From: an uncultured Chloroflexia bacterium
GTDB lineage: Bacteria; Chloroflexota; Anaerolineae; Anaerolineales; E44-bin32
Length of the DNA: 64,000 nt
Direction of reading: 5' to 3'
Assembly: GCA_963777165.1 (NCBI GenBank)
Contig: CAVZPO010000023.1
Location: 479,644-543,643 of the forward strand
How positions within the stretch are numbered: the stretch's first letter is position 1; the number at the start of each line of letters is the position of its first letter. This document shows, piece after piece, positions 12-15,397 of this stretch. Both the position numbers and the translations under genes were made by a program. The notes beneath the pieces were generated by a model. The model was not told where the DNA came from. It ran no database searches and was given only the letters and a program-made list of their open reading frames with translations.

Positions 12-3000
12 ATGCCGAACGATGCTGAACTGATCGCCCGCGTCCAGGATGGTGCCGCGTCCGCACACTCGCGGGCGGTGCTTGGCCGTTGGATGCGCGT
101 CCCGGAAGCCTGGGCCGCGCTACGCGCCCTCGACCCATCCGAAGTAGGCGGCGTTCAATCGCCCTTCGATCTGGCAACCCTGATGGCCGGGCGCGCCGGC
201 GGGTCGTCGACGGATTCGATCACCTGGCGAGATGCCGGGGTGGCCGCGATCCGGCCGCCGGCCGATTTCCAGGAGGTCCTTCGGCTGGCGACCGCGCTGC
301 GCCAGGGCGTTCAGACCGGCCTGTCGGCTGAGATCGCCGAGGCGATTTCGACCAGGCCGGATGTGTGGCGCTCGGCGCTGGCAATCGCCTGGCCCGATCT
401 CCCCTCCCCTTCCGACCTCGCCGCGGACTTGTTCACACGCGGAGACTTGTCGGGGGCATCCGTCCTGGCCAACGCCCTGCTCGCATCGAACGACTGCGGG
501 GCGGCGGCGGAGATGCTGCGCGAGTTGCTTGGCAACGCCGCCGCGGAGGCCCTCTCGCCTCTGCTCCAGGCGGGCGAAGACGGTTTGGCTGCTGCACTGG
601 CCCAGCGAATTCCAGGTTCCAAGGCCGCAGTGGCCTCCTACGAGGACGCGCTTACCGCGGCTGGTCGTGCCCAGGCCGAGGGCGACGTGACCCTCGCCCG
701 ACAGACACTCATTGCCGCATGGGATCGCAACAACGACCTTGGTGCGCGCTTCGGCGACCGCCTGGCCGACGCCGCCATTTCCGAAGGGGATCCGGTGTCG
801 GCGTGCGAGGCCCTCAAGCGCGCGCTCCAGCTCAACCCGACTCGCGAGCGTAAGGCCCGCGTCGCCTCCCTCCTGGCCGAGATGGGCCGAACGTCGGAAG
901 CCCATGATTGGCTCGCCGAGACCCCGGAAACCGCAAGTGAATACATTGCCGCAGCAACCGTCTGTCTTCAGGCGGGCGATCGCGGCCAGGCTGCATCGCA
1001 TGTTGCCCATGCGGTGGCGGCACTTCCGTCGGAGCCCGGTCTCCAGTCGGAGTGGCTGCAGCGGTTGTCCAATGCGACGCAGTCGATCGGGCAGCCGCAC
1101 CTGGCCGTCCCGGTCCTCGAGCGCCTTGCGCGCCATCGCCCTGAGGACCTAGACGCGCGGTACTCGCTCGCCGTGAACCTGCTGGCCGTCGGTGAACCTG
1201 ACGAGGCCGCCGCCCATGCGCTCGTCGTATGCGGTTTGAGGGGCGATTCGGCGGATGCGCGCCGGCTGCTGGCGCGATCTCTGCAGGCTGCCGGCCGACC
1301 GGGCCAGGCGATGGAGCAGTGGTCCGCCGTTCCGCAGGCGACTTCAGAGGACCGGCTCGAGGCTGCACAATGCGCCTTGATGGCGGGGCAGCCCACTTCG
1401 GCGATCGAGATCGCCCGGGAACTGCTGGTCTCCAACCCGAACTCAGCACTCGCGCTCAGTCTTCTCGGGCGCGCCATGATGGCTGCAGGCCAGCCGCATG
1501 AGGCGCTGCCACAGCTCCAGGACGCGTGCGCAGCCGATCCACGCCAGCCCGAAACGTGGAAAGCCCTGGCGGAGTGCCAGGCCGCTGTCGGAGACCTGCA
1601 GGCCGCGGGCACGACGTTGGCCGCCGCGGTTCAGGCTGCGCCCGGAAACGGCGGCCTGCTGCATGCATACGCTGCCTGGCTTCGCCAGGAGGGTCGGACA
1701 AGCGAGGCACTGGAGGCCGCTGCGCAGGCGGTGGCCGCGTCCGGTGCCCCATTCGAATGGCGTCTCGAGTACGGCGAACTGCTCGTCACCCTCGGGCACT
1801 TCGAGCAGGCGGCAGAGGTCCTGCACGAGGCACTCGCGCTCCGCCCGGCCTCCTGGCCAACGCGCCGAGCGCTGGCTGAATCGTTTCTCGGCCAGGGCCT
1901 CCTTGCCCCGGCTGCCGACGTCGTCGGTTCGATTGCCGACGGCGCTGAACCGACGGCCCTCGCATTCGCCGGCCGTGTCCTCGCCCTGCAGGCAGATGCC
2001 TCGCGCGATCAGACGCTGGCCCGCCGCGCCCTCGCCCTGCTCGAGCGTTCGGTTAGTAATGTCCCATCTCCCGAAACCGAGGTGTGGCTTGCGAAGGCAC
2101 TGGAGACCTGCCACGACATCGAGCAGGCCTTCGAACACTACCGCGCGGCACTCGAGGAGCCCGACGCCCTGCAGCCCGAGTCTCACCTGGCTGCTTCCCT
2201 CGGTCTGGCGCGCTGCGCGACTGCCCTTCACCACGCACCGGCGGCAATCCACGCCCTCGAATCCGCCGCCGCCGTCCACGGCGCATCGGCGGACCTGGAA
2301 GTCGCCTTGTCGGCCGCGTATGCTGCGGGCGGCCAACATCAGCGTTCGCTGCAAGCCGCACAGCGTGCCTCGGAACTTGCTCCGGGCGAGGCATCGCTCC
2401 GGCAGCTCACACAAGCGGCTGCCCAGGCTGGCGAGAGCGGGATGGCGCTCGACGCCATCCGCAAACTCACCACACTCCAGCCATCGAACCCGCACGTCTG
2501 GCTCAGCGTGGCCGAGCTTTCGGGCCAGGCGAACGATCTGCCATCCGCGCGTCAGGCCCTAGCGACCGGGATCCGATTGGCAAACGCCGACGCCTCCGCC
2601 TGGTCCCGCGCCTCCGACCTGCTGTTGCGGCATGCTCGGCCCGCCTCAGCCCAGCGGGCTGTGCGGCGCGCCCTCTCGTGCGCGCCTCTGGATCCCGATC
2701 TCGTCCGGCAGATGGCGGAGGTCAGCCAGCACGCCGGCGACGACCTCACCGCGCAGCGCGCCTGGGTGCGCCTGGCCGAATTGCGCCACCAAGATCCCGA
2801 GGGGTTGAAGCTGGCAGCGCGATCCCTGTCGCTGCTTGGCCAGCGCGCCGTCGCCATCGGTATCTGGCAGCGCGCCGCCTCGCTCGATCCGCAAGATGCA
2901 GACACGCAGAGCGACCTGGCACGCGCCTATCTGACGGAAGGGGATGCAGCCCGCGCCCTTAGCCACTACCGAAGTGTGACCTCCGCGCTCCCCTGCGACC

Positions 3001-5075
3001 TGGGCATGACGCTCGAGGCGGCTGCGGCCGAATTGCACTACGGCTCGCCTGAAGCAGCCGTCGAGTTGTACCGCGCTGCTACGAAGGAAGCCCCGCAGGA
3101 GACAGCCGCCTGGCTCGGCCTGGGCGAAGGGCTGCTGATGCTCCGACAGCCCCACGAAGCTCGCCAGGCGCTCGAGACCGCGCACCGGCTCGACAAGTCC
3201 CGTGTCCAGATCATGGGGTCGCTGGCAATCGCCGCGCTGGACACCAACGATGCGCCGATGGCCGCCGCGATCTACCAGAGCGCCCAACGGCACACGTGTG
3301 AGAACGCCTCAGCTGCTGCAGCGCTGGCGCACGCTGCACTGGCGCTTCTCCAATGGGACGAGGCGCTGCCGGCGTTGGATCACCTGAATGCCTCGGCCCC
3401 CTCCCTCGCGTCCCTTCGGGCAAGCGTGGAGACCCGGTTGCGCCTGGCGGATGCCGCCTGGCTGTTCCAGTCCGCCGCCGCCCATATGCACGCCCCTGAC
3501 CCAGCTTGGCGCACCGACGCCGCCTGGGCCGAAGTGCTCACCTTGATCGAGCGCCTCGCCGCCGTAGCCCCTTCCTGGGAGGCGGAGCGGCTTCGTCAGA
3601 GGGCCTCAGTCACCTACGACCGGCTCGACCCGGCGATCCTGATCGAAACGGCACGTACCGATCCGTCCGGCGAAACACTGGAAGGGCTGGCGATCGCGCT
3701 GCTGCGCAACGGACGCCCGTCCGAGGCATTCGAGCTGATCGGGCGCGGCGCACCGGCGCCCTCCGGCCGCTGGCATCGTTTGCTCGCCGGCATCGCCCTG
3801 ATTGACCTCGGCCAGTTCGAACACGCGCGCAAGGCGCTGGACGAAGCGTCGTCCGATGCCGCGCTGCGCCCGCTGGCCGGATTCCTGATCGCACGCACCT
3901 ACCTGCACCAGGGTGACCCGGAGTTGTTCGCATCCCGAGTGAGCAATTCGTTGGTGGAATGGAACGACGAACCGGCGTGGCACTTCGAGCTGGCCAACGC
4001 GTACTTGCATCTTGGCCAAACTGACGCCGCCCTGCCTCACCTGCATCAGGCCTCCGATCTGGCGCCGTCGGTCGGCGACTACTCGTTGGCGCTGGCACGC
4101 ACGGCCCTGCAAGCTGGCGACCTTCTCGGCGCACAAGCCGGCTTCGCCCGTGCCGTCGAGGACCATCCGTCCATCGGACAGGTATGGAAGGAAGCCGGGC
4201 TGTGCGCCTTGTCCAACGGCGACGGTGCGACGGCAGATGCATGGCTCGAGCACGCCCGCCGGCTCCTTCCCGGCGACGTGGAGACGCTGATCGGCGCGGC
4301 ACGAGCCAGCCTGGCCAGCGGTGAAGTCCGCCAGGCCCATCAGCACACCCAAGCCGCCTATCACTTGGCTCCGGACGATTCCGAAGTCTTGCAGGTTCTG
4401 GGTGAGGTGTTTGCCCGGCAAGGCAAGCTTGATCGAGCGCTGCAATCCTTCGACCGCGCCCTCAAACGCGCCGTCGACCCCCTTCCCGTCCACGTCGCCC
4501 GGAGCCGACTACTGGTCAACATCGGCCGCCCAGATCAGGCCGTGGCAGCGTTGAAGGGTGCCATCGCACTGGCGCCCGAGTCCGATGCGGGCTGGGCTGC
4601 GCTGGCGGAAATCGAAGAGGCGGCCGGGCATCTCACCGAGGCGCTCGACGCCTCCGCGCGTGCGGCGCAGCTCTCGCCGAACGGCCTCGGCCACCATATC
4701 CAGCTTGGACGGCTGTGCCGAAAGGCCGGCCAGCTTGACCGTGCTTTGGATGAACTGCTGCATGCCCAGACTGCGGGGCGCAACGACGGTGCGTTGTCGT
4801 TTGAGATCGGTCGCGTGTACGAAGACCGGCGCGAGTTCAAGCGCTCGCTCGACGCCTACCAGCGGACCATCGATCTCGACTCGTCCCATGGCGAGGCGCA
4901 CTTCCGCGCCGGCGTCGTCCTCAAGATGATCAAGGCCTACCCGCAGGCCGGCAAGATGCTCAAGCGGGCGGTCGAACTCAATCCCAGGGATCCCGAAGCG
5001 CTGCACCAGCTGGCCGCCGTTCGCGCGCTGGAACTGGTCCACGGCGGGATCGCTCAACAGGCGGTGGCCCGATGA
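12..5075 (+). CDS. Very large tetratricopeptide-repeat (TPR) protein, 1687 aa
   Basis: Long ORF of successive ~34-aa A/L-rich helical repeats (e.g. ALSLLGRAMMAAGQPHEALPQLQDACAADP, AHFRAGVVLKMIKAYPQAGKMLKRAVELNP). GAGG at 3-6 precedes the ATG. The frame is open upstream to the window edge, so the start is not fully certain. The stop overlaps the next ATG (ATGA, 5072-5075). Confidence 0.9.
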   Translation: MPNDAELIARVQDGAASAHSRAVLGRWMRVPEAWAALRALDPSEVGGVQSPFDLATLMAGRAGGSSTDSITWRDAGVAAIRPPADFQEVLRLATALRQGVQTGLSAEIAEAISTRPDVWRSALAIAWPDLPSPSDLAADLFTRGDLSGASVLANALLASNDCGAAAEMLRELLGNAAAEALSPLLQAGEDGLAAALAQRIPGSKAAVASYEDALTAAGRAQAEGDVTLARQTLIAAWDRNNDLGARFGDRLADAAISEGDPVSACEALKRALQLNPTRERKARVASLLAEMGRTSEAHDWLAETPETASEYIAAATVCLQAGDRGQAASHVAHAVAALPSEPGLQSEWLQRLSNATQSIGQPHLAVPVLERLARHRPEDLDARYSLAVNLLAVGEPDEAAAHALVVCGLRGDSADARRLLARSLQAAGRPGQAMEQWSAVPQATSEDRLEAAQCALMAGQPTSAIEIARELLVSNPNSALALSLLGRAMMAAGQPHEALPQLQDACAADPRQPETWKALAECQAAVGDLQAAGTTLAAAVQAAPGNGGLLHAYAAWLRQEGRTSEALEAAAQAVAASGAPFEWRLEYGELLVTLGHFEQAAEVLHEALALRPASWPTRRALAESFLGQGLLAPAADVVGSIADGAEPTALAFAGRVLALQADASRDQTLARRALALLERSVSNVPSPETEVWLAKALETCHDIEQAFEHYRAALEEPDALQPESHLAASLGLARCATALHHAPAAIHALESAAAVHGASADLEVALSAAYAAGGQHQRSLQAAQRASELAPGEASLRQLTQAAAQAGESGMALDAIRKLTTLQPSNPHVWLSVAELSGQANDLPSARQALATGIRLANADASAWSRASDLLLRHARPASAQRAVRRALSCAPLDPDLVRQMAEVSQHAGDDLTAQRAWVRLAELRHQDPEGLKLAARSLSLLGQRAVAIGIWQRAASLDPQDADTQSDLARAYLTEGDAARALSHYRSVTSALPCDLGMTLEAAAAELHYGSPEAAVELYRAATKEAPQETAAWLGLGEGLLMLRQPHEARQALETAHRLDKSRVQIMGSLAIAALDTNDAPMAAAIYQSAQRHTCENASAAAALAHAALALLQWDEALPALDHLNASAPSLASLRASVETRLRLADAAWLFQSAAAHMHAPDPAWRTDAAWAEVLTLIERLAAVAPSWEAERLRQRASVTYDRLDPAILIETARTDPSGETLEGLAIALLRNGRPSEAFELIGRGAPAPSGRWHRLLAGIALIDLGQFEHARKALDEASSDAALRPLAGFLIARTYLHQGDPELFASRVSNSLVEWNDEPAWHFELANAYLHLGQTDAALPHLHQASDLAPSVGDYSLALARTALQAGDLLGAQAGFARAVEDHPSIGQVWKEAGLCALSNGDGATADAWLEHARRLLPGDVETLIGAARASLASGEVRQAHQHTQAAYHLAPDDSEVLQVLGEVFARQGKLDRALQSFDRALKRAVDPLPVHVARSRLLVNIGRPDQAVAALKGAIALAPESDAGWAALAEIEEAAGHLTEALDASARAAQLSPNGLGHHIQLGRLCRKAGQLDRALDELLHAQTAGRNDGALSFEIGRVYEDRREFKRSLDAYQRTIDLDSSHGEAHFRAGVVLKMIKAYPQAGKMLKRAVELNPRDPEALHQLAAVRALELVHGGIAQQAVAR

Positions 5076-7666
5076 TCGATCGTTCTTCTCTGCTTGGTCT
5101 GCTCCGCAGCTCGGCCCTGGCGCGTCGTTTCGACTTCGCCCGCGCCGCCGCCCTCGATTGGCTGGCGGTGTGGCCGGGCGACGCGGAAGTCCAACACCTG
5201 CTGGCCCAGGCGGAGATCGAGCTCGGGCACGATGATCTGGCCATCGACAGGCTCCTTCGCCTGGTGTCAGTCGATCCGGAGGATACACAGGCCTATCTGT
5301 TGCTGGCCGAAAACCTGCGCCGCCGGGGTGATGCTGCTCGGGCACGCGTGTTCGCCGCCTGCGGCCGCGCGCTGCGCAGCGTCGATCCCGACCGCAACGC
5401 CACCCCCGCATGGGCGGCAGCCCTCACGCGTGCGATTCGCGGTTTGTCCCAAGGCGATACTGCCGCGGCGCTTCAGCAGGCTGCGCTGGCGTTGTCAGCC
5501 GATCCTGACAGCCCCTTACCGACACTGGTCGCACTCAAGGCGCACCTCAGCCTTGGTGACCACCCGGCGGCGGCGGCGCTGGCGGCTGCCTCACACAAGC
5601 GCTGGCCGGAGTGCGTCGCGCTGCGCCTGATGCACGCCTCGGCGTTGATGGAGGCAGGCCAGACATCGGCCGCCGTGGATGCCCTCCACCGAGCCTCGGT
5701 CGACGATCCGACCGGCGCGATCACGCGCCGCTGGCTCGGCCCCTCACATCCGTATGGAGATCTGTGGCCGGCCAGTCTGCAGGCGCACATGAGCCGGCCT
5801 GTGCCCGCGGATGTCGCCGCGGCGATGGGCGACAACCGGCTGGCGGCCGGCACGCCGGAGGATCGGCAGGTCGAGGCGCCTGCGCCGTCCAAGGCCGCTC
5901 CGTTGATCGAGTCCGACGAGGATCTCCCGACTCCGGAGCCGTGGGAGGCATTCCGCGGCCCCAACGCCGCGGAGCGCGACGTCGAGATCGGCGTCACTCC
6001 GGAGGCGGAGATCGAGCGCGAGATGGCGCGGCTCTCCGTGAAGGTGAAAGCCCGAACGCTGGAGCGCAATCGCGACCGGCGCGTCCCTTCGTACATCTTG
6101 CTCTCGAGCGAGACGCGCCTGATGCAGCAGTTTGGCCCAGCCGGTTTCAAGCTGGTCGATGCTGCCTTGTATGACTTGTGCGATGCGGTGCGGCGGCGTA
6201 AGGGCTGGACCGCACACCGTGTGTACATCGATGATCCGGGCAGCCTGCGGCCGTTCGGTCTCACGCCGGCCGACCCCGGGAATGCCTGGCAGATCAAGCT
6301 CCGGCTGGCCGATCTCGATGTCGCCCTGCGCCGCAAGGGCGAGATGATCGGATCGGTGCTGATCATCGGCGGAGAGAGCGTCATCCCGTTCCACCGACTC
6401 CCCAACCCCACCGATGACGATGACGATGCGGTGCCGTCCGACAATCCGTATGCCACGCCGGACGAGAACTACTTCGCGCCCGAGTGGGCCGTGGGCAGGA
6501 TCCCGGTCGACGACGATGCCGCCCTGTTGGTTCGCGTGCTGGGCACCGCTGCAAGGACCCATCGGACCGCCCTGCAGCCGCGGGGCCCCTTCGCGGGATT
6601 GCGCGCATGGCTTCAAGCGCGCTTCGGCCGGCTCCTGTCGGGCGAGGCGCGCGCCTTCGGCTACAGTGCCAGCATCTGGCGCCGGTCGTCTATGGCCGTC
6701 TACCGTTCGATCGGCGAGCCTCGCTCGTTGGTCACCTCCCCACCGGCCGAAGCGGGCGCACTTCCGTCGCCGGCGATGCGCGGGCCGCGTTTGTCGTACT
6801 TCAACCTGCACGGGCTGGAGGACTCCCCCGAATGGTTCGGGCAGCGTGACCCCCTGCGCGAGCCGGACGCGCCTGAGTACCCGGTCGCGCTCCGGCCGGG
6901 CGATGTGGTCAACGGCGGGCGCGCGCCCAAGGTGGTCTTCACCGAGGCGTGCTACGGCGCCAACACGCTTGGCAAGAGCTCCGAGACGGCGCTGTGCCTC
7001 AAGTTCCTCGATTCGGGCAGCGACGTCGTCGTGGGCTCCACCAAGATCTCCTACGGATCGGTGACCCCTCCGCTGATCGCCGCCGATCTGCTAGGCCGCT
7101 CCTTCTGGGATAATTTGTCCGCCGGCCTCCCCGCCGGGGAAGCCCTGCGGCGCGCCAAGGTTGACCTGGCAACCGAGATGGTCAAGCGTCAGGGGTACGT
7201 GGACGGGGAAGATCAGAAGACTCTGATTTCGTTCGTCCTGTACGGAGATCCGCTCTTCATGCTGACGCCGGCGCGTGTGCCGCTGACCGGCAAGGTGATC
7301 GTCCGCCGAACCACGCGTCCAGCCGAGGTCAAGACCGCCTGTGCCCTCAACGACGGCTGCGCGCCGGATGGCATGCTGCTCGACCAGGCTTCCGCCGACC
7401 GTGTTCGCGGCATCGTTGCCCACTACCTGCCCGGGATGGCGGACGCCGTGGCCCGCGTTCACAGCCAGCACTGCGGATGCGCAGGAGAGGGTCACGCCTG
7501 CCCGACGTCTCAGATCGGATCCAAGCAGGCCGGCCAATCCGACGCCGGGACGACTGTCGTCACCCTCTCCAAAGCCGTCGCCGACGGCACCCACCTTCAC
7601 GCCCGGTATGCCCGGTTGACCCTCGATCCAACCGGGAAGGTGCTGAAGCTGGCGGTCTCCAGGTAG
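5072..7666 (+). CDS. TPR + peptidase C25 (gingipain-like, clan CD) cysteine protease with a Cys-rich C-terminal extension
   Basis: On the + strand: ATGATCGATCGT at 5072 and TAG at 7664-7666 (the ORF track strand label is wrong). N-terminal TPRs, then C25-type motifs IIGGESVIPF, SDNPYA, VGRIP, YFNLHG (His580, 6809-6811), FTEACYG (Cys627, 6950-6952) and FVLYGDP. Confidence 0.8.
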   Translation: MIDRSSLLGLLRSSALARRFDFARAAALDWLAVWPGDAEVQHLLAQAEIELGHDDLAIDRLLRLVSVDPEDTQAYLLLAENLRRRGDAARARVFAACGRALRSVDPDRNATPAWAAALTRAIRGLSQGDTAAALQQAALALSADPDSPLPTLVALKAHLSLGDHPAAAALAAASHKRWPECVALRLMHASALMEAGQTSAAVDALHRASVDDPTGAITRRWLGPSHPYGDLWPASLQAHMSRPVPADVAAAMGDNRLAAGTPEDRQVEAPAPSKAAPLIESDEDLPTPEPWEAFRGPNAAERDVEIGVTPEAEIEREMARLSVKVKARTLERNRDRRVPSYILLSSETRLMQQFGPAGFKLVDAALYDLCDAVRRRKGWTAHRVYIDDPGSLRPFGLTPADPGNAWQIKLRLADLDVALRRKGEMIGSVLIIGGESVIPFHRLPNPTDDDDDAVPSDNPYATPDENYFAPEWAVGRIPVDDDAALLVRVLGTAARTHRTALQPRGPFAGLRAWLQARFGRLLSGEARAFGYSASIWRRSSMAVYRSIGEPRSLVTSPPAEAGALPSPAMRGPRLSYFNLHGLEDSPEWFGQRDPLREPDAPEYPVALRPGDVVNGGRAPKVVFTEACYGANTLGKSSETALCLKFLDSGSDVVVGSTKISYGSVTPPLIAADLLGRSFWDNLSAGLPAGEALRRAKVDLATEMVKRQGYVDGEDQKTLISFVLYGDPLFMLTPARVPLTGKVIVRRTTRPAEVKTACALNDGCAPDGMLLDQASADRVRGIVAHYLPGMADAVARVHSQHCGCAGEGHACPTSQIGSKQAGQSDAGTTVVTLSKAVADGTHLHARYARLTLDPTGKVLKLAVSR

Positions 7667-7717
7667 CCACAATCTGGCACCCTTCTTGCATCATGGCCAT
7701 CACGCAAGGAAACCGGC

Positions 7718-9004
7718 GTGATGGCCATGAATCGTCTTGGCTTCCACTATTACCCCGACGACCAGCACTTCACCGAGAAGGACCTCTCGGCCTGGCTGCC
7801 CGCCCTCTCCGCGCTCGGCGCCGGCTGGCTGACCGTCCGCAGCTCGGCCTCGCGTGCCGTCCCGGAGCCGTTCCTGCGCGGCCTTCTCGAGGCCGGTATC
7901 GCGCCGATCATCACCCTCCCCCTGCGCCTGGCCTCGATCCGGCCGGCGGAACTCAGCGGACTCCTCGAGGCATACGCCCATTGGGGGGTCCGGCACGTCG
8001 TCATTGGTGATCGCCCGAACACGCGGGCGCAATGGGAGCCGGCCGAATGGGGGCGTTCGGCGCTCGTCGAGCGCTACCTCGATCGGCTGATCCCCTTCCT
8101 GCAGGCCCAGCGGACCGCAGGCCTTCAGCCCGTTATGCCAGCCCTGGAACCGGGCGGCGACTACTGGGATACAGCCTTCCTGGCAAGCACGTTGGCCGCA
8201 CTCCAGCGCAGGGGACAGCAGTCCCTCGTGCGCGATCTGGCCATCGGGATGTATGCCTGGTCGTCCGGCCGATCGCTGGATTGGGGGCGCGGAGGCGCCC
8301 GCGCGTGGCCTTCCGTGCGCCCGTACCACAACGCAACCGATGCACAGGATCAGCGCGGCTTCCGGGCTTTCGATTGGTACGCGCAAATCGCGAATGAGGC
8401 GGTTGGGCGTTCCCTCCCGATGCTGGTCCTCGGCGGCGGGATCGGGCAGGCGTGGGATCCGGAATCAGACTCCGAGACCGGCGACCTGATCGGGATGGTT
8501 AAGGCGCTCACCACGGCCGACGTCCCGGACTCGCTTCTGGCCTTCAACGTTTACCTGCTGTGCGCCGACCCCGAAGCTGCGGAACATTCGTCGGCCCTGT
8601 ATGCCGATCCGAGCTCGCCGCGCGCCGCTGCCCGCGCCCTGTTCGCTCACGCGGCGCAGTCGGCAGGCGAAGCGGCGCCCAAGACGGCCAGGACCATCAG
8701 CCACTACTTGCTGCTGCCCACGAATGGAACCCTGGGACAAGACGAGTGGAATGCGCTGGCGGAGTACGTCCTCGTCTGGCGGCCCGTGATCGGGTTCTCG
8801 ATCAGCGAGGCCAGCCTGGCCTCCGAAGTGACGCTGGTGGGCGACAGCCGTGCGCTGCCCGTCAGCGTAGAAGACGACCTACGCGTCGCCGGATGCGTCG
8901 TCCGGCGAGTCATCCCTCAAGCCACGTCGGGGCCCGCCTCGGTGGTGTCGCCCGCTGCGGCCCCGGGCCCTTCGATTCTTGCCGCAGGAGTCAGCCATGG
9001 ATAA
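7718..9004 (+). CDS. Glycoside-hydrolase clan-A-like TIM-barrel protein (apparently inactive) with a C-terminal cell-wall-binding-2-like domain
   Basis: GH5/39-like pattern (LGFHYY, LGAGWLTV, GVRHVVIGDRPN, PALEPGG, IGMYAW). The C-terminus VTLVGDSRALPVSVEDDLRVAGCVVRRV resembles the CW_binding_2 repeat. Start is GTG 7718 or ATG 7721/7727, after AAGGA. Confidence 0.55.
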   Translation: MMAMNRLGFHYYPDDQHFTEKDLSAWLPALSALGAGWLTVRSSASRAVPEPFLRGLLEAGIAPIITLPLRLASIRPAELSGLLEAYAHWGVRHVVIGDRPNTRAQWEPAEWGRSALVERYLDRLIPFLQAQRTAGLQPVMPALEPGGDYWDTAFLASTLAALQRRGQQSLVRDLAIGMYAWSSGRSLDWGRGGARAWPSVRPYHNATDAQDQRGFRAFDWYAQIANEAVGRSLPMLVLGGGIGQAWDPESDSETGDLIGMVKALTTADVPDSLLAFNVYLLCADPEAAEHSSALYADPSSPRAAARALFAHAAQSAGEAAPKTARTISHYLLLPTNGTLGQDEWNALAEYVLVWRPVIGFSISEASLASEVTLVGDSRALPVSVEDDLRVAGCVVRRVIPQATSGPASVVSPAAAPGPSILAAGVSHG

Positions 9005-10109
9005 CGCACCTCGCACTCCCACCCAGCGCACGATCCCGGCTCAAGAGCCGCCAACCGTCGGCCAGGCGCGCGTCAAGGTGCTCGGTCTGGGCGGCGGCGG
9101 ATCGAATGCCGTGAACCGCATGATCGAGCTCGGGCTGACCGGCGTCGAATTCATCGCCGCCAACACCGATCGTCAGGCGCTGGCCTCGAGCCTGGCGCCC
9201 ACCCGGCTGGTGCTCGGCCCGCGCGTGACGCGCGGCCTGGGCGCCGGCGGCAATCCGAAGACCGGAGCGACCGCGGCGATGGAAAGCAGCCGCGAGCTGG
9301 CAGCCGCGCTGGCCGGGGCCGACATGGTATTCATCACCGCTGGCATGGGCGGCGGCACCGGCACAGGTGCAGCGGCCGTCGCGGCCGAAATCGCTCGCGA
9401 AGCCGGTGCCGTCGTGATCGCCGTCGTCACACTCCCGTTCTCATTCGAGATGACCCGGCGATCGCATAACGCGCTCGATGGTGTGCGGTTGCTTCAACCG
9501 CACACTCATACGTTGATCACCGTTCCAAACGATCGACTGTTGCAGGTCGCCCCTCGGGATGTCAGCCTGGAGGTCGCATTCCGGCTGGCGGATGACGTGC
9601 TGCGCCAGGGCGTGCAGGCCGTCTCCGAATTGATTACGCACGCCGGGCTGATCAATGTAGACTTCGCCCACGTGCGCGCGCTGATGGAGCGCGGCGGAGG
9701 CGCGTTGATGGCCGTGGGCGTCGCCGAAGGGCCGGACAAGGCGCGCGACGCCATCCACCAGGCCCTGCATCACCCGCTCCTGGGGGTCGACAGCCTGGAG
9801 TACGCCAATGGCGCCCTGGTGCACTTCACCGGCGGCGAAGACCTGACCCTGTTCGAGGTCAGCGAGGCGGTCGATGAGCTGCGCGCTTCGCTGGCGCCGG
9901 ACACCGACATCATCCTCGGGGCGACGACCGAGCCTTCGATGGAGGGCCGAACCCAGGTCATCCTGATCGTGACCGGGATCGGTGGTCGCCCGATGCCGGC
10001 GACGGTCGAGCGCGTCCCGCAGACGGCCTCGCTGGCCGCTGCACCCGCTGCCGAAGATGATCTCGACCTGCCGACCTTCCTGCGCCGGCGGGTCGCCGTC
10101 GGCTCATGA
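8997..10109 (+). CDS. ftsZ: FtsZ-family tubulin-like GTPase (probable divergent paralogue)
   Basis: KVLGLGGGGSNAVNRM, ANTDRQAL, GLGAGGNP, AGMGGGTGTG tubulin signature, and C-terminal peptide DDLDLPTFLRRR. AGGAG RBS before ATG 8997. T7 loop reads NVDFAHV. Confidence 0.93.
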   Translation: MDNAPRTPTQRTIPAQEPPTVGQARVKVLGLGGGGSNAVNRMIELGLTGVEFIAANTDRQALASSLAPTRLVLGPRVTRGLGAGGNPKTGATAAMESSRELAAALAGADMVFITAGMGGGTGTGAAAVAAEIAREAGAVVIAVVTLPFSFEMTRRSHNALDGVRLLQPHTHTLITVPNDRLLQVAPRDVSLEVAFRLADDVLRQGVQAVSELITHAGLINVDFAHVRALMERGGGALMAVGVAEGPDKARDAIHQALHHPLLGVDSLEYANGALVHFTGGEDLTLFEVSEAVDELRASLAPDTDIILGATTEPSMEGRTQVILIVTGIGGRPMPATVERVPQTASLAAAPAAEDDLDLPTFLRRRVAVGS

Positions 10110-10120
10110 GGAGGCAGGGC

Positions 10121-10348
10121 ATGGACCCAGACGCCATCGCCCGCGTCACGAAGGAAGTCGTCCGGACGTATGGGGAGATGCAGGGCGTCACCCCGACCGT
10201 CCGCCGCGAGACCCAGGCGACGCAGGAACATTACATCTTGACCTACAAGGCCAGGGTCAGCGTCCCCGGTGGAAAACAAATGAGCCGGATCGTTCGGGTG
10301 ACCGCCGATTCGCGCGGCCGCGTACAGCGCATCAGCACCTCGAGGTAG
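10121..10348 (+). CDS. Small hypothetical protein (~75 aa) similar to the C-terminal domain of the C25 protease
   Basis: GAGGAGG RBS before ATG 10121; the alternative ATG 10106 overlaps the ftsZ stop. The C-terminus RIVRVTADSRGRVQRISTSR aligns with RYARLTLDPTGKVLKLAVSR of the protease. Confidence 0.75.
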   Translation: MDPDAIARVTKEVVRTYGEMQGVTPTVRRETQATQEHYILTYKARVSVPGGKQMSRIVRVTADSRGRVQRISTSR

Positions 10349-10350
10349 CG

Positions 10351-10551
10351 ATGACCACACTTGCGCCCACTTGCCCATCGGCCGTCCGCCTGTTCTTCTG
10401 GCGGGTCGCCGCGTGGCTCACGGAGTTCGCCCTCCGGCACCGGGCTGGGATGACTGCCGCCTGGCCCTACTTGCAGTTCGTGGCGGGTGGGCTGACCGCC
10501 TACGCCATCGGGCGGCTGATTGGTGCGTGGGCGATGAAAGGCATGCCCTGA
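10351..10551 (+). CDS. Small putative membrane protein (66 aa)
   Basis: ATG 2 nt after the previous stop, preceded by GAGGT. Hydrophobic segment WPYLQFVAGGLTAYAIGRLIGAW. Followed by a terminator-like hairpin. Confidence 0.55.
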   Translation: MTTLAPTCPSAVRLFFWRVAAWLTEFALRHRAGMTAAWPYLQFVAGGLTAYAIGRLIGAWAMKGMP

Positions 10552-10590
10552 TTGCTGCGCGGCCCTACCCGCGTGCGACATCGTCCTCTC

Positions 10591-10625
10591 ACAGGCCCGC
10601 CGCTCCAGGCGGGCCTGTTCGTCTT
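10591..10625 (+). terminator. Probable intrinsic terminator closing the TPR-protease-ftsZ cluster
   Basis: ACAGGCCCGCC-GCTCCA-GGCGGGCCTGT 11-bp stem, followed by a weak T-tract (TCGTCTT). Confidence 0.55.
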
Positions 10626-10752: not shown

Positions 10753-10781
10753 TTGCGGCCTCCCAATCGCCAAGGTACAAT
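10753..10781 (+). promoter_or_regulatory. Sigma70-type promoter
   Basis: TTGCGG-N17-TACAAT upstream of the CDS at 10814. Confidence 0.5.
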
Positions 10782-10813
10782 CCGCGTTCGAGGGTATTCA
10801 ACCACCAACGCCT

Positions 10814-11545
10814 ATGGGACGCCGCGCCCAGCTGAAGCTGCTCTTTCTCGTCATCATGGTGGGCTTCGTGCTCGGTTTGCTCAGCGTCGTCCTCGACCGC
10901 CTCGAGGCCGGTGAGAGCGGCGGCACGCCGACGGCACCCGCGGGACTTGGGCAGACAACCATCCTCGTCCTCGGCGTCGACCGGTTCGATCAGCCCCCGG
11001 CGTTGCGCGCCATCTGGTTCGTCACCTTCCGGCCGCCCGGCCGCAGCGTCTTCCTGTACGGCCTGCCCACGAACGCGCCGATCCAGGGCCAGGACCTGGT
11101 GACCCTTGGAGCGCTGTTCGCCTGGTCCTCTGAGCGCGGCGTCGATCCGCTGTTCCTGGACACGCTGGCGCGCACTGTCCCGCTGCAGCCCGATGCCACC
11201 GTGCTGATGGACGAAACCGCCTTCGCCGCGCTGGTGGACTTCGTCGGAGGTGTGGAACTCAACGGGACGACCTTTGGCGGGAACGAAGTGCTGGGGTTTC
11301 TCAGCCTGGTAATTGAAGAGCCCGAGGCCTCGCTGGCTTCCCAGTCTCGCCTGATCGAGGCGATGGTCCGACGCCTCCCGGCCCTGGGCGCTCTTCCGGA
11401 TGTGAGCCCGCTTCAGTGGCTGGTCCCGGACCACGCGCACCTGACGCTGCCGGTCAACCAACTGGTCGGGCTGCTCTCGCCGCTTCTGCCCGTCGAACCG
11501 ACCGAGGTTCACGTCGATCGCTGGTCGCCCCAGACGGCGCCCTGA
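10814..11545 (+). CDS. LytR-CpsA-Psr (LCP)-like membrane-anchored protein, degenerate
   Basis: N-terminal TM helix. TILVLGVD and MDETAFAALVDFVGGVEL match LCP core motifs. The conserved R-S/T-D and PRD motifs are absent. Confidence 0.55.
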   Translation: MGRRAQLKLLFLVIMVGFVLGLLSVVLDRLEAGESGGTPTAPAGLGQTTILVLGVDRFDQPPALRAIWFVTFRPPGRSVFLYGLPTNAPIQGQDLVTLGALFAWSSERGVDPLFLDTLARTVPLQPDATVLMDETAFAALVDFVGGVELNGTTFGGNEVLGFLSLVIEEPEASLASQSRLIEAMVRRLPALGALPDVSPLQWLVPDHAHLTLPVNQLVGLLSPLLPVEPTEVHVDRWSPQTAP

Positions 11546-11581
11546 GGCATGTCCGAGAGGGAATCCAAGGCACTTCCTCGC

Positions 11582-11610
11582 TTGCACTCTGCACAAAGTG
11601 CCGCTATTCT
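11582..11610 (+). promoter_or_regulatory. Sigma70-type promoter upstream of the ABC transporter operon
   Basis: TTGCAC-N17-TATTCT, about 165 nt upstream of the ATG at 11776. Confidence 0.5.
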
Positions 11611-11621
11611 ACGACGGTAGA

Positions 11622-11749
11622 CCAGCGGTGCACCTGCCGGGGCGTCGGCGGTGAGGACGACGCACGCGGCTTCGCGTGTGATCCCCCAAGCGAACGACGG
11701 ACGCCGAACGGTTCGCCACCTTTCCCGCCTCGCCGGGTTTACACTGCTG
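11622..11749 (+). ncRNA. Candidate structured 5' leader or ncRNA (family unassigned)
   Basis: Nested pairings CAGCGGTG/CACTGCTG, ACCTG/CGGGT and CGGGGCG/CGCCTCG enclose hairpins CACGCG-GCTT-CGCGTG and GCGAAC...GTTCGC. Confidence 0.35.
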
Positions 11750-11775
11750 AGATTGAAACCTTCACGGAGGAAGCC

Positions 11776-12522
11776 ATGAAGAAGTTCGCCCTTGTGTCGC
11801 TGATCGTCCTGGCCGCGTTGGCCCTGTCCGCCTGCGGCGGCGGCGCCGCCGACAAGGTCCAGGTCGCCACCGACGCCACCTGGCCGCCATTCGAATACGT
11901 GGACGAGACCTCGAAGCAGATCGTAGGCTTCGATGTCGACCTGATGAATGCCATTGCCGCGGAGACCGGCCTCGAGGTGGAGTTCGTCAACGTCAGCTGG
12001 GATCCTCTCCTGGCGGGCATGGCGGAATGCACGTACGACGCTGCGATCTCCGCCATGACCATCACCGAAGAGCGCAAGCAGCAGTTCCTGTTCACGGATC
12101 CGTACTTCGCCGCGGGTCAGATCGTGGCCGTGCGCCTCGAGAACACCGACATCGCCGGCAAGGACGACCTGGTCGGCAAGGTCGTGGGAGCGCAGCTCGG
12201 GACGACCGGCGCCATCGAGGTCGAGGGCATATCAGGTGCGACGCTGAAGACCTACGATGACATCGGCCTGGCGATCCAGGACCTGATCAACGGGCAGGTG
12301 GACGCCGTCGTCGCCGACAACCCGCTGATTATCGAGTATGTCGGTCAGAACGCGGACACCCTGAAGACCGCCGGTGAGGCGTTCACCGATGAGTTCTACG
12401 GCATCGCCGTCTGCAAGGATCAGGCCGACCTGCAGGCCAAGCTCAACCAAGGACTGGCCGCGGTCAAGGCCGCGGGTGTGATCGATACACTGACCGTCAA
12501 GTGGATTGCTGCGGGTAAGTAG
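11776..12522 (+). CDS. Polar/basic amino-acid ABC transporter substrate-binding lipoprotein (family 3)
   Basis: GGAGG RBS, lipobox LSAC, ATDATWPPFEY, GFDVDL, SAMTITEERK, GAQLGTTG. Confidence 0.93.
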   Translation: MKKFALVSLIVLAALALSACGGGAADKVQVATDATWPPFEYVDETSKQIVGFDVDLMNAIAAETGLEVEFVNVSWDPLLAGMAECTYDAAISAMTITEERKQQFLFTDPYFAAGQIVAVRLENTDIAGKDDLVGKVVGAQLGTTGAIEVEGISGATLKTYDDIGLAIQDLINGQVDAVVADNPLIIEYVGQNADTLKTAGEAFTDEFYGIAVCKDQADLQAKLNQGLAAVKAAGVIDTLTVKWIAAGK

Positions 12523-12533
12523 ACGGACCGCAA

Positions 12534-12573
12534 CAAGCGCCTGCGGAGGCCTGACCGGCTCCGCAGGCGCTTG
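12534..12573. repeat. Perfect 15-bp inverted repeat between the SBP and permease genes (probable mRNA-stabilising or attenuating hairpin)
   Basis: CAAGCGCCTGCGGAG-N10-CTCCGCAGGCGCTTG. Confidence 0.7.
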
Positions 12574-12587
12574 CATTAGGAGGGCCC

Positions 12588-13421
12588 ATGAAGCCCAAAG
12601 TGCCGGTACTTCCAGCCGCTCCGGAGCGCGAGCTGATGAAGATTCCTGGCGCCGAACCCAGCGCGCGCATCGACTCGTGGTGGGGGCTCGTCTTCGGGAT
12701 TATTGCCCTGACGATCGTGCTGGTTGTGTTCTCCCCGGATCCCTATCGGCGCATCGTCCTGTTTGTGCGCGACGGCATCGCCATCACATTGACGCTCACG
12801 GTTTCATCCTTCTTCCTGGTCTTGTTCGTCGGCCTGGTGGGAGGCCTGGGGAGGATCTCCAAGAACAAGGCCGTGCGGGGCGTCACCACCCTGTACGTCG
12901 AACTGGTGCGCGGCATCCCGCTGCTTGTCCAACTGCTCTACTGGTACTATGCCTTTCCTTCAATCGTCCACTCGCTGGGCGCATCCCTGAACCTCCCGGC
13001 GCTGGAAAACTACCGTGCCAACGCCGTCGCCATGGCAGTGCTTGGGATGACCTTCTGCTATGGCGCCTACATGACCGAGATCTACCGCGCCGGCATTCAG
13101 AGCATCCCCAAGGGCCAGCTGGAGGCCGCCCGAAGCCTGGGCATGTCGTATGTCCAGGCGATGCGGCACGTGGTCCTGCCTCAAGCGATTCGCGTCATTC
13201 TGCCTCCCGTGGGGAACGAATTCATCTCGTTGCTGAAGGACTCATCTCTGGCCAGCGTCGTCGCGGTCACCGAGCTCACTCGCCGCGGGCGCGAGTTCAT
13301 GTCCGCCACCTACATGCCGATCGAGACCTGGACGATGGTCGGCCTGCTCTACCTGATCATGACCCTGTTCTCGTCCCGGATTGTCGCCTGGAGCGAACGC
13401 CGCATGCAGTTCGAGAGGTAG
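12588..13421 (+). CDS. Amino-acid ABC transporter permease (HisM/GlnP family)
   Basis: YVELVRGIPLLVQL, AYMTEIYRAGIQSIPKGQLEAARSLGM (EAA loop), NEFISLLKDSSL. Confidence 0.95.
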   Translation: MKPKVPVLPAAPERELMKIPGAEPSARIDSWWGLVFGIIALTIVLVVFSPDPYRRIVLFVRDGIAITLTLTVSSFFLVLFVGLVGGLGRISKNKAVRGVTTLYVELVRGIPLLVQLLYWYYAFPSIVHSLGASLNLPALENYRANAVAMAVLGMTFCYGAYMTEIYRAGIQSIPKGQLEAARSLGMSYVQAMRHVVLPQAIRVILPPVGNEFISLLKDSSLASVVAVTELTRRGREFMSATYMPIETWTMVGLLYLIMTLFSSRIVAWSERRMQFER

Positions 13422-13427
13422 CCCGCC

Positions 13428-14162
13428 ATGGAGCCCATCATCCAGATCCACGAGGTTCACAAGCACTTCGCGCGCGATATTCATGCGCTGCGCGGCGTCA
13501 GCCTCGACGTTCAGAAGGGCGAGGTCGTCGTGGTCATCGGGCCCTCGGGGTCGGGCAAGTCCACGCTGCTGCGCTGCATCAATCGGCTGGAGGAGTACGA
13601 CCAGGGATCGATTGTGGTCGACGGCATCCCGCTCGACACGGCGGCCAACATCAATGCCGTGCGGGCGGAAGTCGGGATGGTCTTTCAGTCCTTCAATCTG
13701 TTTGCCCACCTCTCGGTTCTCTCAAACGTCATGCTCGCCCAGCGCGTCGTCCGCCATCGCGATCCGGCGGAGGCCCGGCGCGTGGCCATGGACTTGCTGG
13801 CCAAAGTCGGGATCCCTGAGAAAGCCGAGGCCTATCCTGCGCAGCTTTCCGGCGGCCAGCAGCAGCGCGTGGCGATCGCCCGTGCCCTGGCGATGAACCC
13901 CAAGATCATGCTCTTCGACGAGCCGACGAGCGCGCTCGATCCCGAAATGATCAAGGAAGTGCTCGACGTCATGCTTGCCCTGGCCCACGAGGGGATGACG
14001 ATGCTCGTCGTCTCGCATGAGATGGGCTTCGCCCGTGCCGCGGCGCACCGGGCGATCTTCATGGACGGCGGATTGATTGTCGAGGAGAGCACTCCGGAGA
14101 AACTGTTCAGCTCGCCGTCGCACGAACGGACGAAGCTGTTCTTGAGCAAAGTCCTGATGTAG
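13428..14162 (+). CDS. Amino-acid ABC transporter ATP-binding protein (GlnQ family)
   Basis: [35 protein letters not shown]. Confidence 0.96.
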
Positions 14163-14213: not shown

Positions 14214-14217
14214 GGTG

Positions 14218-14299
14218 TGCGCTGGGGGGGACTTGAACCCCCACGCCTTGCGGCACATGGCCCTCAACCATGCCTGTCTGCCAGTTCCAGCACCAGCGC
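14218..14299 (-). tRNA. tRNA-Leu (anticodon GAG)
   Basis: Reverse complement GCGCTGGTGCTGGAACTGGCAGACAGGCATGGTTGAGGGCCATGTGCCGCAAGGCGTGGGGGTTCAAGTCCCCCCCAGCGCA. Acceptor stem GCGCTGG/CCAGCGC, anticodon arm CATGG-TTGAGGG-CCATG, long variable arm, GGTTCAAGTCC T-arm. CCA is not encoded directly after the discriminator. Confidence 0.97.
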
Positions 14300-14377: not shown

Positions 14378-15397
14378 ATGCGAATCGTCCTCGACGCCAT
14401 GGGCAGCGACACCCATCCTGATCCTGAGATCGATGCCGCCGCCCAGGCCGCCGACCTCTGGGGCGACCCGGTGCTTCTGGTTGGTCCCCAGGAGACGTTG
14501 GAGGCTCGGCTGCGCGCTGTCGGCGTGGGCCCGGAGCGCGTGCGCGTCGTCCACGCACCCGAGGTCCTGGAGATGACCGACAAGCCGGCAGATACGGCCC
14601 GCGGCAAGTCCCGCAGTTCGATGGCCGTCGGAATGGAGCTGGTCAAGTCCGGGGAGGCGGACGCCTTCGTGACCGCCGGCAACACCGGCGGCGCCATGGC
14701 CAACGCGCTCTTCCGCATCGGCCGGATCCGCGGCGTCAAGCGCCCGGCGCTTGCAGGCGTGTTCCCCGTCCGAACCGGCCAGGCGGTCCTGCTGGACATC
14801 GGCGCCAACGCCGACGTGCGTCCGGAGTACCTGGTCCAGTTCGCCGTCTTCGGTTCGCTGTATGCCGAAATCGTCTTCGGCCGTCCCTCACCGCGCGTGG
14901 CGCTCCTCTCCAACGGCGAGGAAGCCGGCAAGGGCAACGCGCTCGTCAAGGAGACTTTCCCCCTCCTGCAAGGAGCCGGACTGAACTTCGTCGGAAACAT
15001 CGAGCCCAAGGAGTTCTACGCCGGGAAAGCCGACGTAGCCGTAACCGACGGCTTTACGGGCAATATTCTGCTCAAGACCTCCGAGGCAGTGGCGTCGTTC
15101 CTGATCAGCATCATCCGCGAGCAGATCAAGAGCAGCCCGGTGAGCGCTGTCGGCGGGCTGCTCGCCAAGCCGGCGTTCAAGCGCGTCGGGGCGCTGCTCG
15201 ACCCAGCGGAATACGGAGCGGCTCCGCTGCTTGGGATCGACGGGCTGGTGTTCGTCGGTCACGGTCGCTCCGATGCCCGGGCACTTGTCAGCGCAATGCG
15301 TGTGGCCCGGCAAGCCGTCTCCGGTGGCCTGCTGGAGGCGCTGCGCCGAGAGATCCGAGCCCGGCTATCTCCGGGAGAGGCCGAGGCGCAGGCGTGA
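14378..15397 (+). CDS. plsX: Phosphate acyltransferase PlsX
   Basis: MRIVLDAMGSD, TAGNTGG, GVKRPAL, LLDIGANAD, LLSNGEEAGKGN, TDGFTGNILLK, GHGRS. Confidence 0.96.
   Translation: MRIVLDAMGSDTHPDPEIDAAAQAADLWGDPVLLVGPQETLEARLRAVGVGPERVRVVHAPEVLEMTDKPADTARGKSRSSMAVGMELVKSGEADAFVTAGNTGGAMANALFRIGRIRGVKRPALAGVFPVRTGQAVLLDIGANADVRPEYLVQFAVFGSLYAEIVFGRPSPRVALLSNGEEAGKGNALVKETFPLLQGAGLNFVGNIEPKEFYAGKADVAVTDGFTGNILLKTSEAVASFLISIIREQIKSSPVSAVGGLLAKPAFKRVGALLDPAEYGAAPLLGIDGLVFVGHGRSDARALVSAMRVARQAVSGGLLEALRREIRARLSPGEAEAQA

Follow-up and report, generated by a model that had tools for sequence, protein, structure and literature searches.

A conserved Anaerolineales locus combines a gingipain-fold protease with a second, T7-loop-variant FtsZ and sigma-54 motifs

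Six co-oriented genes divided by a sigma-54 motif

The window analyzed here is a stretch of 64,000 nucleotides from an uncultured Chloroflexota bacterium of the order Anaerolineales (GenBank assembly GCA_963777165.1, contig CAVZPO010000023.1, positions 479,644 to 543,643), lying on contig C23 of a source genome, G000, that is 90% complete. It opens with a conserved module that combines a gingipain-fold protease with a second FtsZ, referred to as FtsZ2. Positions 12-10551 hold six open reading frames (ORFs), all on the plus strand: a giant tetratricopeptide repeat (TPR) protein (12-5075; 1687 aa, Pfam TPR, no hydrophobic segment); a protease with TPR and Peptidase_C25 domains (5072-7666; 864 aa; PF01364, E 9.5e-11); a protein with a glycoside hydrolase (GH) barrel of clan GH-A (7721-9004; 427 aa from the ATG at 7721, with an alternative GTG start at 7718); FtsZ2 (8997-10109; 370 aa); a small basic protein that is a paralogue of the protease tail (10121-10348; 75 aa, pI 10.9); and TM66 (10351-10551), a basic 66-aa protein with a hydrophobic C-terminus that is conserved by position. 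The GH, small and TM66 proteins have zero Pfam or NCBIfam matches.

An earlier note on this DNA described these genes as one co-oriented set, and the junctions it listed are present: the first two genes overlap by ATGA at 5072-5075, the GH and ftsZ2 genes share 8 nt (8997-9004), and gaps of 11 and 2 nt follow. The 51-nt gap it gave between the protease and GH genes is right for the GTG start, whereas the homologue database starts the gene at the ATG, leaving 54 nt. Inspection of this gap reveals an exact match to the sigma-54 -24/-12 motif, TGGCAC-N5-TTGCA at 7675-7690 on the plus strand (P2), directly before the GH-ftsZ2-small-TM66 genes. P2 is the single such match in the window, where 0.04 are expected, and 4 of 100 shuffles had one. 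Because P2 lies inside the protease-GH gap, the sequence suggests that the locus is likely two transcripts split at this point, and a single six-gene operon is not upheld.

Conservation of the set was examined in 53 loci fetched with the protease, nearly all from metagenome-assembled genomes (MAGs) of Anaerolineae, Anaerolineales or Chloroflexota, a sample biased to close relatives with near-duplicates included. The protease-GH-ftsZ2-small order recurs in 42 of the 53, in keeping with the conserved, dedicated module that had been proposed; seven of the other 11 end too early at contig ends and four differ (L008, L052, L053, L056). A TM66-like ORF lies 3' of the small gene in 41 of the 42 loci listed, and the 42nd, L023, was covered separately. 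Four more conserved genes, encoding RpoN, a kinase, a sigma-54 activator and a protein with two transmembrane segments (2-TM), lie directly upstream of the window.

FtsZ2 is a paralogue that lacks the T7 aspartate

G000 contains exactly two FtsZ matches. FtsZ1 (C1:39433-40599) stands at the end of a full mraZ-to-ftsA division and cell wall (dcw) cluster on contig C1 and has a normal T7 loop, GLINLDFAD, so the FtsZ of the locus is a paralogue. As the earlier note had observed, no fts or mur gene adjoins the locus. FtsZ2 scores 364.5 bits against TIGR00065 (cut-off 295.2), and its GGGTGTG motif and C-terminal DLPxFLR peptide are intact and conserved in 44-45 of 45 rows. The T7-loop variant is likewise present: the loop reads GLINVDFAH, and the last T7 Asp is His225, which we take to occupy the position of E. 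coli D212. This position is His in 41 of the 45 rows, Asn in 4 and Asp in none. FtsZ2 therefore departs from a canonical dcw FtsZ in two respects, as the T7 Asp (NxDxxD) is absent and the position after ftsQ-ftsA is held by FtsZ1.

A quick tree places 30 FtsZ2 rows in one clade, with 95 in the Shimodaira-Hasegawa-like approximate likelihood ratio test (SH-aLRT), and two quick trees, of 68 and 40 rows, do not group FtsZ2 within the clade of Anaerolineales FtsZ1. A shared clade of FtsZ2 and Anaerolineales FtsZ1 is not rejected by the approximately unbiased (AU) test (p 0.096). According to the sections of PMC11244171 drawn on here, the D216A FtsZ of Caulobacter polymerizes with no detectable GTPase activity and produces multiple and misplaced constrictions and minicells. 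FtsZ2 shares with canonical FtsZ and with engineered GTPase-dead forms (E. coli D212A, Caulobacter D216A) the GTP motif and the C-terminal peptide, and with the latter a changed T7 position. In contrast to the engineered proteins, it represents a natural, conserved His/Asn clade encoded outside the dcw cluster and beside a normal FtsZ1.

Other second FtsZ copies were noticed in the phylum. Several further Chloroflexota families (f21, f29, f32, f43, f59) have copies that retain the T7 Asp, some of them in tandem. Locus L302 (G245:C1:1225000-1233500) carries a very divergent second FtsZ with a T7 His (DFSH), its gene lying after those for a CHAT protease and an Amidase_2 protein, possibly an independent cluster of clan CD protease, amidase and altered FtsZ.

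A gingipain-fold protease on a TPR platform

The protease comprises TPRs (1-230), a linker, a clan CD domain (335-735) and an alpha/beta tail (770-864) that ends in Ser-Arg. The clan CD assignment made from the letters is confirmed, as PF01364 matches at 42 bits (cut-off 23), the fold is that of gingipains and the H580/C627 dyad is present. A predicted structure (mean predicted local distance difference test (pLDDT) score 71, catalytic loops low) superposes on RgpB with Z 26.3 and a root-mean-square deviation (rmsd) of 2.9 over 289 aligned residues, on Kgp with Z 24.0, on separase with Z 14-15 and on Csx29 with Z 12.9. The dyad is found in 48 of 50 near-set rows, the other two being gaps, and E625 is likewise invariant; among 81 distinct wider homologues, E-x-C is kept in 75 and the C-terminus is S/T-R/K in 73. 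An acid two residues before the Cys is a mark of Arg/Lys-specific clan CD enzymes. From E625 and the conserved C-terminal Arg/Lys, we infer that the protease may be Arg/Lys-specific. No signal peptide was seen in the protease, the N-terminus being TPR and the maximum 19-residue hydropathy 1.22.

Some protease fragments among the homologues are labelled C25 family peptidase. In family f53, loci L094, L095 and L096 carry Cys-replaced homologues followed directly by GH genes, and the two f53 GH genes aligned (L118, L124) both retain the acid/base Glu.

The giant TPR protein of the window contains no NACHT domain and no Walker A motif. Among homologues outside the order, NACHT was found in 4 of 6 distant N-termini scanned, and Walker A is present in 8 of 9 distant proteins versus 0 of 5 from Anaerolineales. 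The N-terminus of the Anaerolineales protein matches the post-NACHT helical region alone, and weakly. This pattern suggests a truncated NACHT-TPR protein, similar to NOD-like receptors (NLRs), that has likely lost its nucleoside triphosphatase (NTPase) domain.

A pseudo-glycosidase and a free copy of the protease tail

Clan GH-A glycosidases carry two catalytic Glu residues, after strands 4 and 7. The GH protein of the locus has a TIM barrel of this clan (1-320) and a C-terminal domain; in a model of pLDDT 87, the barrel matches GH39 with Z 21.2 and rmsd 3.6 over 280 aligned residues. Its acid/base Glu is replaced by Arg99 (41 of 43 rows) and its nucleophile Glu by Ala/Gly239 (43 of 43), so the description as a pseudo-glycosidase stands. 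Distant GH homologues keep an NEP-type Glu, and the homologue in G032 has both catalytic Glu in the alignment. The C-terminal domain is weakly similar to the cell-wall-binding repeat CWB2 (PF04122 type), with profile matches to SlpA/Cwp8 at E 0.008-0.15 in one copy only; its best PDB match is C. difficile SlpA (E 0.008), and 29 members gave no Pfam match. Residues 320-405 retrieved nothing from the ESM Atlas, and no signal peptide was seen. Those homologues that bear a name, among 120 listed, are called hypothetical.

The 75-aa protein had been proposed as a stand-alone copy of the protease tail, and it can be aligned along the full length of that tail (hhalign probability 93%, E 2.4e-7) except for the tail's Cys/His loop, which it lacks. 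In every one of 70 distinct homologues the last two residues are Ser-Arg/Lys. For this protein, profile searches of Pfam and the PDB returned nothing credible, and the ESM Atlas returned hypothetical Chloroflexota clusters only.

Upstream regulators and the P1 and P2 motifs

The upstream block runs from rpoN (C23:474681-476099; L001:10682-12097) through a soluble PAS/HisKA kinase with no hydrophobic segment (C23:476103-478076) and a receiver-AAA sigma-54 activator (C23:478073-479257) to the 2-TM gene (C23:479311-479643; 110 aa), whose product matches no pore or toxin family. The activator is the sole full Sigma54_activat match in G000. GAFTGA is present in 34 of 37 rows and the protein ends at most 41 residues past the AAA lid in 33 of 37; no helix-turn-helix (HTH) match was obtained, HTH_8 included, which leaves it without a DNA-binding domain. 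RpoN, a receiver-AAA activator with GAFTGA and -24/-12 motifs are thus all present, as in HTH-less-activator sigma-54 regulons of the CtcC/FlgR type. RpoN also has a conserved CxxC...CxxC insert past region I that, by its sequence, is likely a zinc finger.

In 36 of 36 loci a sigma-54 motif, P1, lies before the 2-TM gene; rpoN has such a motif of its own. The strict P2 pattern occurs in 28 of 42 loci, three of these misplaced by frameshifted ORFs, while a matrix trained partly on P1 and P2 sites finds P2 in 45 of 45 junctions. Three RNA runs (X1, X2, X5) contain small shares only, as contigs of relatives that are mostly less than 95% alike, and are uninformative on transcription, starts and levels.

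The two halves of the module are separable

In the order sample, the protease, sigma-54 and two FtsZ occur together in 10 of 10 genomes of family f3 and in the one f4 genome, and none of 23 genomes of f2, a sister family, has the protease, sigma-54 or a second FtsZ (two sigma matches fell below cut-off). Of 151 genomes of the order, 113 have the small gene; none turned up in f2 (0/15) or f89 (0/4). An absence of peptidoglycan from the family without the module was considered and discarded, as MurD matched in 55 of 55 genomes. Across 401 genomes of the phylum, the protease profile matches 104, of which only 34 reach E <1e-30, the rest being weak and nearly all TPR-only; the 34 include the unpublished G161 and the 104 also include G263, two genomes that no other claim uses.

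In f3, the GH-ftsZ2-small unit has its own motif and lies far from the rpoN-to-protease block (e.g. G068, G224, G216). Outside the order, the core consists of 2TM, giant TPR and protease genes, sometimes followed by the GH gene, which is directly 3' of the protease in the distant G209, G032, G153 and G305; in G100 and G237 the protease tail is encoded by a gene of its own. Other Chloroflexota often have the protease core with one FtsZ and no sigma-54 (e.g. G277, G209, G032). Direct control of FtsZ2 by the protease, as the earlier note envisaged, is therefore unsupported, because the halves are separable and the core occurs with a single FtsZ. FtsZ2 is one candidate for a direct substrate, though a doubtful one. 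What is common to the protease half and the FtsZ2 half is putative sigma-54 control.

The distant cores bear on one alternative, namely programmed sacrifice of single cells that breaks the filament: an NLR-derived TPR protein would activate the caspase-fold protease, acting through the 2-TM protein and wall amidases, while FtsZ2 seals the neighboring septa. The distant versions do consist of 2TM, NACHT-TPR and protease, preceded in G387 and G338 by Amidase_2 genes, and parts of the literature (PMC7159879, PMC3501461) link STAND-plus-caspase systems of multicellular bacteria with cell death. NACHT is nevertheless lost in Anaerolineales, the lack of a pore or toxin match for the 2-TM protein speaks against sacrifice, and most of the other genes in the putative regulon have building roles (FtsL, FtsI, L,D-transpeptidase, sortase, SurA-like). 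We consider this explanation unlikely.

Two further arrangements were observed among the loci. In G362 (L110:3206-16724), and also in G272, a kinase, an HTH-bearing activator, a sigma-54 motif, 2TM, a NACHT-type TPR protein and the protease precede a divergent FtsZ/tubulin gene, 28-29% identical to FtsZ2 and with no T4 or T7 motif recognizable by the patterns used. Locus L044 has the full cluster in a layout nearly identical to that of Anaerolineales loci within a record titled Methanosarcinales archaeon, and is probably a mis-binned contig.

Sigma-54 motifs precede division and wall genes

To place P1 and P2 in their genomic context, the strict pattern was searched in 31 relatives, which gave 3-21 sites per genome versus 0-6 for a reversed control. 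The 125 strict sites of 14 genomes lie before rpoN (11), the 2-TM gene (9), the GH gene (8), ftsL (7), a 355-aa gene (5), ftsZ2 directly (2), and amidase_3, TolB-like, LysM, sortase, 357-aa and 906-aa genes (3 each); 26 have no downstream match in G000 and the remainder are mostly singletons. Matrix sites in G000 lie 5' of an L,D-transpeptidase, a LysM-M23 gene and Flp pilin, and the putative regulon also includes sortase and SurA-like genes. A motif within the SurA-like gene itself (G000 C24:13260; L060:1260), uncounted here, recurs at the same place in six other genomes and may be a coding coincidence or an internal promoter.

As a control, the motif was scored at fixed positions in module-bearing and f2 genomes, with a background of 1-3.6%. 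For ten positives, the small gene was the sole basis of classification; G464 and G472, which have sigma-54, protease and FtsZ2 with no small gene, were counted as positives, and G431 (FtsZ2 and motifs, sigma-54 and protease not found, 90% complete) is in neither count. The motif precedes ftsL (ftsL-ftsI) in 15 of 19 module-bearing genomes at >=11 bits (12 at a threshold of 12 bits), whereas f2 gave 0 of 10. The corresponding values are 9/17 versus 0/10 for the 355-aa gene, 14/17 versus 0/11 for the 357-aa gene and 7/19 versus 0/11 for amidase_3.

Shared promoters before ftsL-ftsI and the amidase suggest septum building, which runs counter to a second alternative: FtsZ2 as a dominant brake that copolymerizes with FtsZ1 and stops division, or as a static wall brace in stress or dormancy. 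A brake would agree with the lethality of GTPase-dead FtsZ as the main form in Caulobacter and the failure of E. coli D212A to complement, both from the consulted sections of PMC11244171. It would also agree with a strong sigma-54 motif in G000 (C1:40825-40840, minus strand) that points antisense into the ftsZ1 3' end. Conservation of this antisense promoter does not extend past the genus, however, as matching sites occur in the same-genus G401 and G403 only, and a check of other ftsZ1 loci found none in 8 of 8. Like sacrifice, a brake or brace appears improbable.

The breadth of the regulon raises a third alternative, a general sigma-54 envelope or adhesion response in which the transcripts are neighbors through the shared regulator alone and the protease and FtsZ2 serve unrelated processes. 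The unlinked halves in f3, the Flp pilin, sortase and SurA-like genes and a broad link of sigma-54 to the cell exterior, as given in part of a 2011 survey (PMC3162934), are all consistent with it. On the other hand, the protease tail has its duplicate in the small gene next to ftsZ2, the GH gene directly follows the protease in four distant genomes, and the FtsZ/tubulin gene of G362 lies 3' of the protease behind a sigma-54 motif. A general response thus seems decidedly unlikely.

Comparison with known systems

No description of the locus was found in the open-access literature, supplements aside, which agrees with the view of the earlier note that the combination is not a named system. The regulatory layer, sigma-54 with an HTH-less activator, is of a known kind, while the effector set lies outside every family and system tested. 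Its closest regulatory counterpart is Chlamydia CtcB/CtcC-sigma54, where, in the sections of PMC7482065 drawn on, CtcC is an activator without a DNA-binding domain linked to sigma-54-dependent differentiation; the receiver-AAA activator, partner kinase and envelope-gene regulon are shared. Unlike in Chlamydia, rpoN, kinase and activator are clustered here, rpoN has its own motif, the targets are FtsZ2, ftsL-ftsI, an amidase and the C25 protease, and the host is a free-living filamentous bacterium.

Gingipains are secreted, with a signal peptide, prodomain and Ig-like domain. The protease shares with RgpB and Kgp (C25) the fold (Z 24-26), the His-Cys dyad and PF01364, and differs in its N-terminal TPRs, in a tail that looks unrelated and in that no signal peptide was seen. 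With separase-securin and the TPR-CHAT proteins (Csx29/Craspase, DdvA) it shares a helical-repeat scaffold joined to a clan CD protease (Z 11-15), and the docking inhibitor proposed below is modeled on separase-securin. In contrast to the TPR-CHAT switches, it is of gingipain type rather than CHAT, and the loci read show no CRISPR or extracytoplasmic function (ECF) sigma partner.

Systems of STAND (signal transduction ATPases with numerous domains) or NACHT-TPR proteins with caspase-like proteases, as portrayed in portions of PMC7159879, PMC8195603 and PMC3501461, resemble the distant core of NACHT-TPR, clan CD protease and 2-TM. For Roseiflexus castenholzii, part of PMC3501461 describes a metacaspase operon that includes a NACHT protein, comparable with that core by description only. 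The term C25 is absent from the main text of PMC8195603 and PMC7159879 so far as those texts were covered, and their supplementary neighborhood tables could list the distant core. Unlike these systems, the Anaerolineales module has no NTPase, is fixed and widespread, and is joined to sigma-54 and division genes.

The same kinship invites a fourth alternative, an anti-phage or counter-invader signalosome. NACHT-TPR ancestry and a clan CD fold common to TPR-CHAT defence proteases, such as Csx29, are compatible with it. Against defence stand the fixed position next to trmFO, seen in G000, G068, G369, L012 and L049, the presence in 113 genomes of the order, the loss of the sensor NTPase and the link to division genes, and PADLOC 2.0 gave one weak TPR match (E 3.8e-5) among eight proteins. 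A defence role is very improbable.

Sporulation in Streptomyces involves developmental induction of FtsZ, and Bacillus has an endospore programme. The locus would likewise place a stage-specific promoter before ftsZ and wall-remodeling genes, here with a dedicated paralogue and sigma-54. Spo0A (Spo0A_C) and SpoIVA were each found in 0 of 5 genomes with a positive B. subtilis control, G000 and G411 among the five being only 90% complete. A 2025 survey of sigma-54 regulons does not mention Chloroflexota in its main text (PMC12316311), the 2011 survey, in the part drawn on, places sigma-54 in 'some Chloroflexi' (PMC3162934), and the consulted portion of a Chloroflexota phylogenomics paper mentions ftsZ for the dcw cluster only (PMC10608941).

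Flanking features

The hairpin that the earlier note placed at the end of the set is real (10591-10618, plus strand; 11-bp GC-rich stem, z -3.1), but it has no clear U-tract and was not called a terminator; it occurs in the two nearest relatives only and is a possible weak terminator. Further downstream, a 243-aa single-TM protein (10814-11545, plus strand), syntenic in most loci, has no family match; from its sequence we presume it to be LytR-CpsA-Psr (LCP)-like. A conserved sigma-70-like TACAAT box lies upstream of its gene, which is probably a separate transcript. Between TM66 and this gene, many loci contain an element TTGC...GCGCCCGG-AGTACAAT-CCGGGCGC (L010, L012-L016, L018, L019, L021, L022, L024-L031 and others), of which the window retains the core alone (10773-10782). 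It sets a sigma-70-like -10 box within the loop of a GC palindrome and could be an operator, or a terminator doubling as a promoter. A tRNA-Leu(GAG) at 14217-14299 (minus strand) is unrelated to the module, as are the ORFs at 11416-14162 and 14378-16659, which we take to be an amino-acid ABC transporter, plsX and fabF. An Rfam scan of the window returned no matches.

Discussion

Taken together, the conserved module, its altered FtsZ and the division and wall genes in its apparent regulon suggest a sigma-54 developmental programme in Anaerolineales, in which multiple or off-centre septation and wall remodeling would cut the filament into short or specialized cells. We hold this reading tentatively, at a little short of an even chance. 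In this programme, the phosphorylated activator would fire all sigma-54 promoters simultaneously and independently of enhancers, with positive feedback via rpoN. By analogy with the D216A mutant of Caulobacter, FtsZ2 would bind GTP and polymerize with very little GTP hydrolysis. Docking on the divisome would be retained through its intact tail, and its stable rings would escape mid-cell positioning, which is proposed to give rise to several septa or to septa away from mid-cell. On its TPR platform, the protease would serve as a switch that sets the timing, kept inactive either by its own tail or by the separate 75-aa protein; the terminal Arg/Lys of the latter would block the Arg/Lys-specific site like a cleavage product. 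Of all these steps, restraint of the protease by such a product-like C-terminus is the most speculative. The full combination, that is to say a self-amplifying sigma-54 switch, a GTPase-dead FtsZ laying many fixed septa and an NLR-like protease platform whose securin-like 75-aa inhibitor times cell release, is correspondingly less probable than the programme as a whole and is offered with considerable doubt.

Several observations weigh against a developmental programme of this kind. Cultured Anaerolineae are described as non-sporulating filaments, and no report of a developmental stage was found in the open-access literature searched. The Caulobacter mutant used for comparison is Asp-to-Ala, versus Asp-to-His/Asn in FtsZ2. 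Co-loss in f2 is one evolutionary event rather than 23, and f2 and f89 together represent one or two losses. The core with one FtsZ and no sigma-54 in other Chloroflexota belongs here too, as do three f53 protease homologues without the catalytic Cys and the genomes G464, G472 and G443, in which FtsZ2 and the protease are present and no small gene was detected. The ftsL motif is absent from several module-bearing genomes (G120, G168, G419, G432), and the promoter matrix was trained on P1 and P2 sites.

Anaerolineales, which grow as filaments, are commonly found in sediments and digesters. If the full combination set out above is true, they would possess an unrecognized developmental cycle and a bacterial analogue of separase control. 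An FtsZ clade without the catalytic Asp would offer a natural test of division organized without treadmilling, and sister lineages with and without the module provide a ready comparison. An immune-type NACHT-TPR/protease unit has apparently been converted in this order into a fixed, sigma-54-linked element of the cell cycle.

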